Positions 6,093 to 52,036 are shown, counted from the stretch's first letter. The stretch: 64,000 bases of DNA from an uncultured Spirochaetota bacterium (GCA_963806975.1 CAWEAK010000022.1:513-64512), one strand, 5' to 3'. The notes: a model not told the origin generated them from the letters alone. Made by a program: numbers and translations.

Positions 6093-6251
6093 TCAACTCT
6101 GTGCTACAAGTTTTTTCTCGTAGGTATTTCTTTCCGTGAATTCCTGCTGTTTACCGGTATTCCAGTGCTGAACCGGGCGGTAATAGCCCACAATTCTCGA
6201 ATAAACCTCTGTCGGAATCACGAGTTTCTTGTTTTCATCTTTTTCCTGCAT
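6093..6251 (-). CDS. Stand-alone NrdD C-terminal glycyl-radical peptide, 52 aa (not in ORF track)
   Basis: Hand translation MQEKDENKKLVIPTEVYSRIVGYYRPVQHWNTGKQQEFTERNTYEKKLVAQS; own GGAGGGG RBS; YSRIVGY and WNxGKxxEF match the class III RNR C-terminus. Confidence 0.9.
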   Translation of the reverse strand: MQEKDENKKLVIPTEVYSRIVGYYRPVQHWNTGKQQEFTERNTYEKKLVAQS

Positions 6252-6322
6252 TCTTCCCCTCCACAACTAATAGCTGGCAGTTCGCAACTGACAGTTCATA
6301 ACTGAAATTATTTAAAACTAAC

Positions 6323-8430
6323 TTATATACTCTCTATATACTTGCCGTACTTGTGCAGTTCCTCTTCCGTATGAGGATAGGGACAAGTCCAGTGTTCCCC
6401 GGTTATGTAACCATGTATGGGACAGACCGAAAACGTCGGCGTTATTGAAAAATATGGAAGCCTGTACTGGCTGGCGATTGTCCTTACAATATTTGCGATG
6501 GCTGTCTGGTTTGTTATTTTCTCCCCAAGAAAAACGTGAATCACAGTCCCGCCTGTAAACCTTGCCTGCAATTCATCCTGATGGTCAAGAAGTTCAAAAA
6601 TATCATCTGTCGCGTTAACAGGCAGGTGGACCGAATTTGTATAATATGGCGCCTCTTCCGTTCCTGAAGAAAGAATATCCGGAAATTTCTTCTTGTCCGC
6701 CTTCGCTAACCGGTAGCTTGCGCCTTCGGCAGGAGAAGCCTCGAGATTATAAAGATTGCCTGTCTCTATTTTAAATGTTTCGAGAATATCGAGCATAAAA
6801 TCCAATACCCTTAAAGCAAAAGCTCTCCCGGTTCCGGTATGATAAGGTACTTTAATGAGGTTCATTACCGCTTCGTTCATTCCAATCAAAGCTATTGTTG
6901 AAAAATGGTTTGTCCAATACCTGCCGCTCCTTTTTTTAATATCCTCAAGATAAATACGGGTATATGGATAAAGCCCGGTATCTGTCAATTCCTCAATAAT
7001 CTTCCTCTTTATTTCAAGGGAGGTTTTTGATATTTCCATCTGCTGTTTTAGTAAAGTGAAAAATTCATCTTCCGACGAGGATTGATATGCAAGTCTTGGA
7101 AGATTAATAGTGACAACTCCGATTGAACCGGTCATAGGATTTGCGGCAAAAAGGCCGCCTCTTTTTATCTTTTCTTCATCGGGATTATGATTTTCAAGGG
7201 TTTTTTTACTTAATTGAGCGCGAACTTCACGGTTATCAAGTTTCAACCTGCAGCACATACTTCTTGAGTCTTCCACACTCATATCAGAATTTATAAAATT
7301 ACTGAAATAAGGGGTTCCATATTTTGCAGTCATCTCCCAGATTGCTTTGTATGCGGGATTTTCCCAATCAAAATCACTTGTAATATTGTAGGTTGGAATA
7401 GGGAAAGTAAAGGGGCGGTTTCTGGCATCACCTTCAAGCATCACTTCGGCAAAAGCCCTGTTGATATATTCCATCTCTTTTTTAAATTCAGAGTAAGTTT
7501 CGTCCTTTATTTCGCCGCCGGCAATAACACCCTTATCTTTCAGATAACCGGGGCAGACAAGATCAAATGTTAAATTTGTAAAGGGGGTTTGAAAACCGAC
7601 GCAGAGTAGGTACATTCAGATTAAAAACAAATTCCTGAAGAGCCTGCCTTGTTTCTTCGTAGGAGAGGTTATCATAACGGACGAAAGGAGCCAGAAGAGT
7701 GTCAAAATTGGCAAAGGCCTGAGCGCCGGCCGCTTCTCCCTGAAGGGTATAAAAGAAATTGACAATCTGTCCGAGAGCGGAACGGAGATGCTTCGCGGGC
7801 TTACTCTCAACCTTGCCGCTGACTCCGCCGAATCCCTTAATCAAAAGCTGCTCCAGGTCCCATCCCACACAGTAAGCGGAAAGTGAACCAAGGTCATGGA
7901 TGTGCAGCGCTCCATTGCGGTGAGCCTCTCCGATTTCAGGAGTGTAAATCTTGGAAAGCCAGTAGCTCGCCGTTATTGTGGAAGAAACATGGGCGTTTAA
8001 CCCCTGAAGGGAATAGCTCATATTACTGTTTTCATTAACGCGCCAGTCCCTTAAGTGAACATAATCTTCAATAATATTCAGGCTCTCATTGAGAGTCCTG
8101 TTAATATTACGGATTTCATTCCTTTTAGCCCGGTAAAGAATATAGGCTTTTGCAGTTTTTCTAAAGCCCATATTCATAAGTGTATCTTCAACTATATCCT
8201 GAATGTGCTCAATACCGACTATTTTATCATCCAGCTTGCTGACCACCATAGCGGTAATTTCCCAAGCCTGATTGTAATTCCCCTCACCTGTTACCTCGAA
8301 AGCCTTATTTACGGCGGACGCAATCTTTGCCGCGTCAAAATCAAGTACTCTTCCATCTCTTTTTGTTACAAATGCCGCCTGGTCAATTGACTTTTTTGAT
8401 TGAACCAGCTCCCCTTACCATTTTTTCCAT
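6323..8430 (-). CDS. nrdD: Class III ribonucleoside-triphosphate reductase NrdD lacking the glycyl-radical tail (apparent frameshifts near 8412 and 7605)
   Basis: ATP cone (VTKRDGR), HIHDLG, YCVGW, FTFPIPTYN, RSMCCRL, TGGTV, Zn site CPIH...CPYPH; ATG at 8430 with GGGAGGGG RBS. Confidence 0.93.
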
Positions 8431-8818
8431 AGATTCCCCTCCCAATCTGCATGAAATTAGTTATTACGATGAAGGTTCTTTTCTTTGCGATAAATTTGAC
8501 GGCTTTAGTGAACGGATTTGAAAATCATGACTAATAGTAAAATACTTTAAACTGATTCTTTGTGACGTGCAATTTTTTAATGAATACATAAGCACCCTGA
8601 TTATTTATTTATATTAATGAAGTTTATTATATTTTATTTTTATTTAAAAATCCAAAATTAACACTTTTTTAATACAATCTTCAATTTTCTATTTGCTTAA
8701 TAAATATGAAATTAAAAATCGATAAAAATATTTTTATTTTTGTTGAAATTTATTTTGAAAACGGGACAATGATATTGTCATAACAAGTTCCTTCTTTCTG
8801 CTTTTCAAAAATTGTTTT

Positions 8819-48349: not shown

Positions 48350-50500
48350 ATGAGCCGTATAATTTTGAAAGACGGTTTAAATACAAATCCGGGAAGTCCG
48401 TATTTACTGGGAGCGACACTTTCTTCCGAAGGTTGTAATTTTGCAATTTTTTCAAGAAACGCAGTTTCAGTTAATCTTTTACTTTTTAATGATTATAAAG
48501 ATTCAAAGCCCTCTCATACAATTGAATTTGATAGGAAAATCAATAAAACAGGAGATATCTGGCATATCTTTGTCTACGGTATAAAAAACGGGCAGTATTA
48601 CGGTTATACAGTTGACGGCCCATATACTCCTGAAAAAGAGGGACATAGATTCAATAAAAACAAACTCCTTCTCGATCCATATACAAAAGCGGTAAGCGGG
48701 AGCTATCACTGGAACACTGCCGCCGCATATGGGTATGATCCTTCTTCTCCCGAAGGGATCTTTCTTTCAGCGGGAAAAAGAATTTTGATACCGTGGTAAA
48801 AAGTATTGTTGTTGATGGTTCAGGTTTTGATTGGGATGGCGATAAGCCGCTAAATATTCCAATGTATGAGACCATTATCTATGAAATGCATATCAGGGCT
48901 TTTACTTTTGATAAAAATTCCGGAGTGAAAAACCCCGGAACATACCTGGGTGTCATTGAAAAAATACCTTATTTGAAAGAACTCGGGATAACTACAGTTG
49001 AGTTTCTTCCGGTACAGGAATTCAATGAACTTGAAAATATCAGGAGAAACCCATTAACCAGGGAAAAGCTCAAAAATTTCTGGGGATATTCCCCTCTTGC
49101 TTTTTTTGCACCTGATTCCTGGTATACAGTAAATCACAATGGTTTTCAAGCGGTAAGCGAATTTAAGGAAATGGTTAAGGCTCTTCATAGCTCCGGTATT
49201 GAGATAATAATAGATGTCGTCTATAACCATACCGGTGAAGGGAATGAATACGGCCCAACATTAAGTTTCCGTGGACTTGACAATTCAATATATTATATGC
49301 TTGAAAATGGAAGTAAATATAAAAATTATTCGGGCTGCGGCAACACATTAAACTGCAATCATCCTGTTGTCAAGCATTTGATTATGGATAGCCTGAGATA
49401 CTGGGTGATAGATATGCATGTGGACGGCTTCCGTTTCGACCTTGCCGCAATACTCGGCAGGGATGAGGCCGGCAATTGGGTACCAAGTTATTCTGTTCTT
49501 GCTGAAATTGCCCTCGACCCGATTCTTTCAAATACGAAAATTATCGCGGAGGGCTGGGATGCGGCCGGGCTCTTTAAGGTTGGAGGTTTTCCACCGGGAT
49601 GGGCCGAATGGAATGCTCATTTCAGGGATGATGTCCGGTCTTTTATTAAAGGTGATGATAACAAAGCGAAAGCCATCGCAAACCGCATTATGGGCAGCCC
49701 TGATTTATTCTGCAGCGGAAAACGCAGCCCTTACCATGGAATAAATTTTATTACTGCTCATGACGGTTTTACTTTAAACGATCTTGTAAGTTATAATGAA
49801 AAACATAATGGGGAAAATGGGGAAAACAATAGAGACGGCCTCAATTATAATTTCAGCTGGAATTGCGGCAGCGAAGGTCCTGTAAAAGACAGCGCTATTC
49901 TTGAATTAAGAAACAGGCAGATGAGAAACCTGTTTGCAGTTTTAATGCTCAGTCAGGGAACTCCTATGATACTTAGCGGCGACGAGTTCAAATTCTCAAA
50001 AAAGGGCAACAACAATACTTATTGCCAGGATAACTCATTAAACTGGCTTGACTGGAAACTTCGTAAAGAAAATAAGGATTTTTTTGAATTCTGCCGTTTT
50101 TTTATAAATTTCAGAAAAAAGCATCCCTCTCTCAGGAGGAAAATATTTTTTAATGAGAAAGATAATTTACATAGTCAATCTCCGGAAATTTCCTGGCATG
50201 GCAGCGAACCCGGAAAGCCCGACTGGAATTATAATTCTCATACTTCAGCATTCCTTTTGGACGGGTCGGGGATTAAAACAGGCTCCGATTTCGACGACTG
50301 TTTTATATTCACAGTAATTAACACTTACTGGGAAGATTCTCGAATTCACGATTCCATCTGTTGAAAATATAAAATTTTGGAAATTATTAGTGGATACATC
50401 TAAGAATCCGGGTTTTTATCAGGAGGGGAAAGAACAAAAAATAACTTCGAAAAGCATCTGTGTTAAATCGAGGAGCCTTGTTGTATTGTCTGCTGAATAA
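48350..50500 (+). CDS. glgX: Glycogen debranching enzyme / isoamylase (frameshifts near 48760 and 50340)
   Basis: LLLDPY, IYEMH, NFWGY, DVVYNHT, DGFRFDLA, IAEGWD, FITAHDGFTL, NNNTYCQD. Confidence 0.95.
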
Positions 50501-50580
50501 AAAAAGCGAGGATGCAATATCCTCGCTTCACCCACAAAGTGGGTTGCAGAATTGGGAGGGGAATCTAATTCTGCATAAAT
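50499..50580 (-). ncRNA. Candidate ~80-nt sRNA: three hairpins ending in an intrinsic terminator
   Basis: Stems 50545-50575, 50530-50544 and 50504-50528 with U-tract on minus strand only; C-rich loop complementary to nrdD RBS. Confidence 0.5.
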
Positions 50581-50657
50581 CAATAGGATTATCGGATAAA
50601 GCTTGATGTTATTAAAGATTTTTTGCAAATTATTTTAAAAATTAGCGGCGGGAGCAT

Positions 50658-51290
50658 ATGTTTATGAATAAATTTAATATTGATATAAAAAGTATTAAAT
50701 TTGATGAAAAAGGCCTAGTACCTGTTGTTATCCAGGATGAATTGACTGAAAAAGTCCTTTTTTTATCATATATGGACATGAAAACTGTTGAGAAAACTAT
50801 AGAATCAGGTATGGCTTATTTTTATACCGATTATAAAAAAGAAGAACATGGTTTAGAAAATTATACTAAACAGGAAATTGTAAATATCGCAAAAGAAAGA
50901 GATGGAAGCTCTCTTCTCATTAAAATTATTCCTGATAATAAGATCAGTCTGGATAATTACTCATTTGTAAATAACTCTATTAAAGGCAATGAAAAGCAAA
51001 ACAGGAATAAAGCATCAATCCTTCAGGAAATATATGATGTAATAATGGAAAGGAAGAGAAATAATCCTGAAGATTCTTATGTGGCAAAAAAAATGAGAGA
51101 GGGAATAGACAGGATATTAAAAAAGATCGGCGAAGAAGCGGGAGAGGTTATTATAGCGGCGAAGAACGGTAATGCCGAGGAAATAGGCTGGGAAATGGCG
51201 GATTTAATTTTCCATTTATGGATGGTCTTAGGTTATTACAACCTGACGCCCGATATAATATATGATAAACTTATAGAAAGACGAAAGTAA
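50658..51290 (+). CDS. hisIE: HisIE-like protein (intact HisE, degenerate HisI)
   Basis: FDEKGLVPVVIQD start; ILKKIGEEAGE and EMADLIFHL HisE motifs. Confidence 0.85.
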   Translation: MFMNKFNIDIKSIKFDEKGLVPVVIQDELTEKVLFLSYMDMKTVEKTIESGMAYFYTDYKKEEHGLENYTKQEIVNIAKERDGSSLLIKIIPDNKISLDNYSFVNNSIKGNEKQNRNKASILQEIYDVIMERKRNNPEDSYVAKKMREGIDRILKKIGEEAGEVIIAAKNGNAEEIGWEMADLIFHLWMVLGYYNLTPDIIYDKLIERRK

Positions 51291-51303: not shown

Positions 51304-52036
51304 ATGAGGAGATTTTTTATACCATCTAATAATGTTAACGAAAAGTTCGCGGTAATCACGGGAAGCGACGTGCATCATATTTCCGACGTTCTCCGGAAGC
51401 AGGCGGGTGATATCATACTCGCGACCGATGGGATGGGAAACCATATAACGGCAAAAATCACTCAAATCCAGCAATATCAGATTAATCTTGAAATCGTGGA
51501 ATTAACCCCTTACGAGGAGAGAAAAATCTTCATTAAACTTTATCAGGCTATTCCAAAGGGAGGAAAATTAGACTGGATTATAGAAAAAGCCTGTGAATTT
51601 GGTGTGAATGAGATTGTCCCTGTAATCACAGAAAGAACCATACCTAAATATAACGAAGAAAGAGGACTGAAAAAGATTGCCCGGTGGGAGAGGGATTTCC
51701 ATTGAGACCATGAAGCAGGTCGGGAGAAACCTGCCTCTCTCCATCCATAGCACAATATCTTTTAAAGATATTCAGAAAAACTTAAAGCCCTTTTCTTTTA
51801 AAATAATACTCTGGGAACTTGAGGAAGAACTGTCCCTGAAAAAGCTTCTTCAGAATCACACGGATACTAAAGAAATAGAATTGATTATCGGGCCGGAAGG
51901 CGGGCTTTCAATAGAAGAAGTCGAGGAATTAAAAAACTTCGGCTTTGTTTCAGCCAGTCTCGGCAAAAGAATACTTAAGACAGAAACAGCATCCCTCGCC
52001 GCTCTTGCCAATATTTATTTTGAACTGGACAATTAA
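51304..52036 (+). CDS. rsmE: 16S rRNA m3U1498 methyltransferase (frameshift near 51695)
   Basis: HISDVLR, EKACEFG, IGPEGGL, SLGKRILKTETA. Confidence 0.93.

Follow-up and report, generated by a model that had tools for sequence, protein, structure and literature searches.

Several small RNAs under flagellar control have been described, and these are the closest counterparts of the RNA reported here. In Campylobacter jejuni, CJnc170 (FlmR) is a FliA-dependent stand-alone sRNA that lowers flagellar length and motility (PMC11187230, in the part of the article considered). Within that part of the source, FlmR resembles the RNA that we predict in spirochaetes in being a stand-alone, FliA-type transcript with possible feedback on earlier-class flagellar genes. 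It differs in its length of 47 nt and in its suggested targets, which are the RpoN-dependent flgE, flaB and flgP rather than fliP or cell-cycle genes, and it is found at the genus level, whereas the spirochaete RNA is phylum-wide (PMC11187230). In Escherichia coli, UhpU, MotR, FliX and FlgO, all sigma-28 sRNAs, tune the number of flagella and reach the S10 operon (PMC10578931, likewise in part). Like the predicted spirochaete RNA, they are sigma-28 base-pairing RNAs with flagellar and non-flagellar mRNAs as partners; unlike it, they derive from mRNA UTRs, and the pairing of MotR and FliX falls within coding sequences (PMC10578931). The spirochaete RNA, in contrast, has a free-standing gene and is predicted to pair over the Shine-Dalgarno (SD) sequence. 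Homology to FlmR, UhpU, MotR, FliX and FlgO was compared via Rfam, where no match reached the gathering score.

A further likeness is with RNAs of Firmicutes and Actinobacteria. RsaE/RoxS, IsrR and 6C place an unpaired C-rich seed on the G-rich ribosome-binding sites (RBSs) of several mRNAs; they answer to regulators other than the flagellar sigma factor and have metabolic targets. The spirochaete RNA shares with them the unpaired C-rich, SD-complementary seed, without an Rfam match. In the openly available article texts covered, we found neither a sigma-28 sRNA for Spirochaetota nor a description of this RNA. The parts considered of an oral-bacterial sRNA review (PMC8551640) and of a Leptospira sRNA survey (PMC5243855) do not describe it either.

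Anatomy and promoter of the RNA gene

The locus lies in the window, by which we mean the whole 64,000-nt stretch of DNA analysed, from an uncultured Spirochaetota bacterium (assembly G000). It is flanked by a glgX-like gene and hisIE and has the following features:

50611..50616, minus strand: sigma-28-type -35 element TTTAAT (family TTAAA/TTAAG), aligned in homologues
50589..50595, minus strand: sigma-28-type -10 element CCGATAA, matching the mapped -10 of T. denticola PflaB2
50499..50581, minus strand: predicted sRNA of ~83 nt, a unit conserved in different gene contexts, with a fold and with covariation in helices 2 and 3
50567..50575, minus strand: helix 1, 5' arm, variable; f6 homologues are without the arm
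50554..50566, minus strand: loop of 13 nt, with the anti-SD seed CCCCUCCC at 50561-50554
50545..50553, minus strand: helix 1, 3' arm AAUUCUGCA, invariant in families f1, f2, f3 and f5
50530..50544, minus strand: helix 2, structure conserved across the order
50499..50528, minus strand: intrinsic terminator hairpin and U tract, two-sided changes in 7 of 9 pairs

The 5' end of the RNA was inferred to lie 7 nt past the -10 box, and the 3' end was taken as the U tract. An earlier, sequence-only reading of the window had proposed here a trans-acting minus-strand RNA gene of ~80 nt with an exposed anti-SD loop, and the analysis supports such a gene. Its three hairpins were recovered at the positions given for them (50545-50553/50567-50575, 50530-50535/50539-50544 and 50504-50513/50519-50528). 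The U tract, said to exist on the minus strand only, belongs to the sole terminator-like site in 50300-50800, which is on that strand (one site, against 0.2 expected). This terminator (50499..50528) overlaps the stop codon region of the opposite-strand glgX-like gene. The predicted sRNA folds with a z of about -6.4 to -7.7; over 50499-50600 the minus strand has a z of -6.6, and none of 200 shuffles was as stable. Folding alone does not assign the strand, since the plus strand folds equally well over the same interval.

The alignment of homologues was paired at 90%, against 39-45% in slid controls. Two-sided changes occurred in 10 of 24 pairs, all in helix 2 and the terminator, and none of 500 shuffles reached as many. 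Three of the six pairs of helix 2 had such changes, with 96-97% of its cells paired. Helix 1 had none: all departures fell on its 5' arm, while the loop and the 3' arm were fixed, and the seed loop was invariant in all 17 aligned homologues. A fixed loop and 3' arm next to a drifting or absent 5' arm point to a sequence-constrained pairing region. The loop is predicted to be largely open, its mean unpaired probability being 0.81 here and 0.64-1.0 in 22 homologues. Compensatory changes in relatives, by which the earlier reading proposed to check itself, are thus found within helices 2 and 3; none connects the RNA with a target, where covariation is not demonstrable because the seed is invariant.

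The letters tttaat and gataat, which had been read as a sigma-70 -35/-10 pair, are present upstream, yet the pair itself did not stand: the conserved element is TTAA(T)-N15-CCGATAA, of the sigma-28 type. In 24 of 26 homologue loci the RNA is preceded by CCGATA[A/T], which itself follows a TTAA-like element at a distance of 14-17 nt; of the two exceptions, one has an N gap and the other reads TCGATT. In T. denticola, the sigma-28 promoter mapped by RACE for flaB2 reads TTAA at -35 and CCGATAA at -10 (PMC9481697, in the part considered). G000 encodes FliA (TIGR02479 above the cut-off) and flagellins. When a matrix made from the RNA promoters only was run on the G000 leaders, fliY came 1st, flgF/G 3rd, fliS 16th and flgB 28th; most other matches in the top 30 were non-flagellar, and a loose sigma-28 pattern showed no genome-wide enrichment (92 vs 98 in the control). 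Control by iron (Fur) or redox (Rex), suggested by the AT-rich upstream region, was rejected, as only the sigma-28 elements are conserved. Judged by its sequence, the promoter is of the sigma-28 (FliA) type across the whole family, and from this we infer dependence on FliA.

These data bear on the possibility that the RNA is driven by sigma-70 and dedicated to repressing the anaerobic ribonucleotide reductase. A 9-of-12 sigma-70-like match does overlap the promoter, and nrdD is the best target in the G000 assembly. However, what is conserved is CCGATA, and position 6 of the supposed -10 can be either T or A. Moreover, the RNA persists in family f6, where nrdD was found in one of eight genomes, and fliP is more conserved than nrdD as a target (see below). 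We consider such an RNA highly improbable.

Distribution of the RNA family

A DNA search of 41 genomes gave matches in 21, and the strong matches spanned just the RNA element. An exact 20-nt pattern, searched in 185,579 species genomes, was found at 19 loci, 15 of them labelled spirochaete (Brevinematales or Spirochaetota); the remaining four were without the promoter-hairpin-terminator anatomy. Model R1 matched strongly in 18 of the 19 genomes of families f1, f2, f3 and f5, the RNA being missing only in G009 (86% complete), and more weakly in 8 of 12 f6 genomes. Model R2, in which helix 1 is not modelled, supplied the other four, so that all 12 f6 genomes matched with diverged homologues. With both models, the RNA was present in 30 of 35 Brevinematales genomes. 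In family f4, models R2 and R3 found no RNA (0/3 genomes), a pattern search for a diverged copy yielded no more matches than the control, and a weak R1 match was dismissed because it lies inside an ORF.

Outside the class, model R2 matched 15 genomes among 151. The CCCUCC seed is present in all 15, with a terminator after it, and mostly occupies the loop of a stem whose sequence is unrelated. Model R3, built from these matches, was found in 57 of 151 Spirochaetota genomes and in 42 of 88 sampled genera. Among 30 of its lower-scoring matches, 28 have the seed, 23 the -10 box and 27 the U tract, counts that are partly circular because the model selects for these features. Rfam searches of the window and of eight homologue loci gave no match at gathering score other than a tRNA; the sub-threshold matches numbered only four, all to unrelated families. 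The RNA family is real and apparently unpublished.

Other kinds of element were considered for the locus. A mere intergenic terminator or repeat element, matching nrdD by chance, is contradicted by the single copy and by an invariant seed, an own promoter and covarying helices that are kept while the neighbours change; we give this explanation almost no weight. A REP/MITE-type repeat was likewise rejected, with one copy in G000 and one strong copy per RNA-bearing Brevinematales genome. So was a protein sponge of the CsrB/RsmZ type: promoter and terminator give the C-rich strand, whose loops are without GGA. With a type I toxin-antitoxin system in mind, neighbouring genes of at least 120 aa were compared; they differ between genera, and the complementary sites are distant.

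Several additional elements were seen in the course of these searches. Several distant spirochaete genomes (G072, G096, G115, G116, G150, G061 and G175) have two or three paralogues of the RNA; in one paralogue the seed is followed by an additional hairpin. A second element, shorter than the first, occurs in family f5 (L226 in G025, L227 in G015, L228 in G019), with a similar C-rich loop GATTCCCCTCC and a terminator. It lies directly 3' of the stop codon of a ~440-aa gene, without a sigma-28 box, and is possibly a 3'-end-derived paralogue. A second seed may exist in several f6 homologues (L217-L222), whose terminator loop likewise has a CCUC stretch rich in U and C.

Complementary sites in nrdD, fliP and other leaders

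The site that had drawn attention to the RNA lies some 42 kb away, in front of nrdD:

8430..8451, minus strand: nrdD leader site, comprising the upstream arm, the SD GGGAGGGG, the spacer and the A of AUG; predicted 22-bp duplex with one bulge
6323..8430, minus strand: nrdD, large ORF of the class III ribonucleotide reductase with ATP cone (Pfam NRDD and ATP-cone; tblastn with the G001 protein)
6093..6262, minus strand: 52-aa glycyl-radical domain of NrdD (ORF 6251-6093; NCBIfam NrdD C-terminal match)

Minus-strand 50567-50545 does equal plus-strand 8430-8451 bar one extra base, as had been noticed, giving a 17-nt perfect and a 22-nt near-perfect match. The 17-mer is not a common repeat, having two copies in the 2.46-Mb G000 assembly, one in the element and one in the nrdD leader. 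A genome-wide ranking placed nrdD 1st of 25,453 candidate starts in G000. Perfect complements in the 1,915 other called G000 leaders are at most 13 nt long. Flank shuffling around a constant GGGAGGGG core gave 3,000 versions of the nrdD leader, none of which reached 17 nt. The leader can, however, fold a short hairpin of its own around the SD, so that its flank matches, two in number, are partly interdependent. Net binding of the full RNA was -23.1 kcal/mol at nrdD; among the 1,915 other leaders ftsZ was best at -15.1, and the median was -1.7. This background is that of G000 only, with crude gene calls and with gene starts picked by script. The 52-aa glycyl-radical peptide has GGAGGGGA as its RBS, as had been read, with GGAGGGG at 6262-6256; this forms a weaker second candidate site.

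In the relatives, the pairing with nrdD held in part. It is strong in genera g1, g2, g5 and g9, and net binding is -15.1 or better in 8 of 17 genomes; genus g3 is weak (-1.5 to -9.5), and the two-part motif occurs in only 4 of 17 leaders. The genomes compared are kin and thus not independent.

The nrdD gene in the window runs through three frames; compared with G001, where the 702-aa ORF is intact, it has two frameshifts. The glgX-like gene (48350-50500) and rsmE (51304-52036) are each split across frames as well as nrdD (6323-8430), and the nrdD frameshifts are therefore probably assembly indels, errors that may be common in this assembly. In 20 of 21 genomes (the window and relatives L021-L050), NrdD has its glycyl-radical C-terminal domain encoded apart, as an ORF of ~50 aa; in G007 it is fused. 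In G001, an ORF of ~375 codons, transposase-like by eye, lies between the two NrdD parts.

A role dedicated to the anaerobic ribonucleotide reductase, as the sequence-only reading had it, did not hold up, for the most conserved extended target is fliP (13/16 leaders vs 4/17 for nrdD), a gene absent from the assembly in which the RNA was noticed. The first fliP site, a near-perfect one in G005, came from a listing of GGAGGGG-ATG sites in relatives. A two-part complement, with TGC[AG]G upstream of GGAGGG, was found in these 13 of 16 fliP leaders from RNA-bearing genomes of families f1, f2, f3 and f5, against none of three in f4, which is without the RNA, and none of 1,915 called G000 leaders. 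The median net binding to fliP was -21.0, compared with -4.7 to -6.4 in f4. In G012 the long fliP site lies further upstream in the leader, and in G007 the pairing runs through wobbles. In all cases that allowed the placing of an upstream stop codon, the target sites were in non-coding leaders. fliP was not found in the G000 assembly, which is 58% complete; in G001, of the same genus, the fliP site is lost (-4.8) and the nrdD and dnaA sites are strong. A blind metagenome scan with the complement pattern returned 20 matches, namely 12 RNA genes, one fliP start and seven unrelated stretches. The fliP start (L689) has a perfect 21-nt complement and was the only match at the start of a long ORF. 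Among distant genomes, 4 of 5 fliP leaders have a G-rich SD.

Two other features of the fliP leaders (L486-L509) were observed. One to four YGCACW copies lie upstream in 14 of 16 genomes of f1, f2, f3 and f5, and none was found upstream of fliP in f4, f6 or f7; YGCACW is possibly a protein-binding site. In G012, G013 and G017 the leader has a second G-rich site.

When the loop alone was used as a probe, the top G000 leaders were those of ftsZ, an unknown membrane protein, gyrB, dnaA, fliF and a flagellar-type lytic transglycosylase. The G-rich SD of ftsZ was present in all 18 leaders of f1, f2, f3 and f5, with an ordinary SD in 3/3 f4 leaders. The dnaA and gyrB leaders are likewise G-rich in RNA-bearing families and ordinary in f4. 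For dnaA, an 18-nt perfect complement was found in G005, and the two-part site in 1 of 18 leaders. Median net binding decreased from fliP (-21.0) through nrdD (-13.3), ftsZ (-11.0), dnaA (-8.8), gyrB (-7.9) and fliF (-7.8) to fliG (-7.1).

The G-rich SD core is not specific to RNA-bearing genomes. GGAGGGG is carried by 12 of 1,916 called G000 leaders, and GGAGGGG-N1-9-ATG sites number 104 in G014, a genome without the RNA, against 58, 67 and 69 in three genomes that have it. Family f4, also without it, keeps a G-rich SD at fliF and fliG (3/3). Across the phylum, fliF has one in 13 of 20 genomes with the RNA vs 5 of 8 without detected RNA. In RNA-bearing f6, no site was found at fliP, dnaA or gyrB, the fliF and fliG values were moderate (-3.8 to -11.3), and a strong ftsZ site was present in only 2 of 7 genomes. 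No gene was in common among the f6 GGGAGGGG sites examined (30 loci and 18 more, of 80).

The seed resembles the standard anti-SD at the 3' end of the G000 16S rRNA, and f6 keeps the seed without identifiable targets. Both points would suit an RNA whose main action is to bind protein or, by mimicking the 16S rRNA 3' end, to compete broadly for strong SDs. Against this, in five genera the pairing with fliP reaches far past the SD, and f4 has lost it along with the RNA; we deem such a function very unlikely.

GGAGGGG-ATG loci were examined at 30 per genome (in G014, 30 of 104), with 23, 17 and 20 more for G005, G012 and G015; these further regions were chosen partly by SD-like spacing, and the list of recurrences is incomplete. 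Among the loci examined (L306-L455), GGAGGGG leaders were seen by eye at pyrB, ddl and an ITP pyrophosphatase gene, in two genomes each, and at genes for a SpiroCoCo-like protein and a lytic transglycosylase, in three genomes each. In G015 (L438, G015:C25) a second ribonucleotide reductase, identified by Pfam, has such a leader. The flagellin leaders of G000 (G000:C15:26500-26720 and 75640-77100) contain the motifs CAAGGATG and CAAGGAGG, which we take to resemble CsrA sites.

The RNA could be a purely flagellar feedback regulator (fliP, fliF and others), the matches at nrdD, dnaA and ftsZ being unused by-products of G-rich SDs. The rarity of the two-part site at nrdD (4/17) and dnaA (1/18) speaks for this, as do the retention of GGGAGGGG at nrdD in 2 of 3 f4 genomes without the RNA, the partial dependence of the two nrdD flank matches through the SD hairpin, and a metagenome scan that yielded fliP and no nrdD. 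Against it stand the 17 perfect nt at nrdD, compared with at most 13 elsewhere and unmatched in 3,000 flank shuffles, and the extended pairing that nrdD shows in four genera belonging to two families. In addition, G001 has strong nrdD and dnaA sites and no fliP site, and ftsZ, gyrB and dnaA are within the top four G000 leaders for the loop probe. A flagella-only RNA therefore appears unlikely to us.

Proposed mechanism and significance

In terms of sequence, the locus combines a promoter motif, an invariant seed, covarying helices 2 and 3, a terminator and complementary leader sites. We consider it likely that it encodes a stand-alone sigma-28-type sRNA whose anti-SD loop represses fliP and, in some genera, nrdD, with ftsZ, dnaA and gyrB as weaker targets. 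In the established logic of flagellar assembly, FliA is freed when the hook-basal body is completed. Very probably, FliA would then transcribe the RNA late in flagellar assembly. The loop CCCCUCCC would bind GGGAGGGG over the SD and a 17-22-bp duplex would form as the invariant 3' arm displaces the 5' arm, a step that we propose with high confidence; in duplex models the duplex covers the SD up to the start codon. In the relatives, it is quite probable that 30S loading on fliP would be blocked, with fewer new basal bodies and export gates as a negative feedback. In g1, g2, g5 and g9 the same duplex on nrdD would damp anaerobic dNTP synthesis, which for this genome seems reasonably likely. Pairing with dnaA and ftsZ would slow initiation and division in some lineages.

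A wider reading is that of an ancient phylum-wide sigma-28 sRNA acting as a flagellar cell-cycle checkpoint that shuts off fliP/fliF, nrdD, dnaA/gyrB and ftsZ. This we put forward tentatively, as a possibility rather than an expectation. If it were true, a finished periplasmic flagellum would stop both basal-body export and the next round of growth (dNTP supply, replication and division), and lineages would retune the response by a longer complement in different leaders.

Spirochaetes depend for their shape and motility on a controlled number of periplasmic flagella. To our knowledge, how they coordinate the building of flagella with replication and division is poorly understood. The predicted sRNA, with a single seed and present in 42 of 88 sampled genera, is a concrete candidate regulator. 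Repression of a ribonucleotide reductase by a flagellar sRNA, if real, would tie the control of motility directly to the supply of dNTPs. Finally, the turnover of targets under an invariant seed, with fliP lost and nrdD and dnaA gained in g1, would make the family a case of sRNA regulon evolution.
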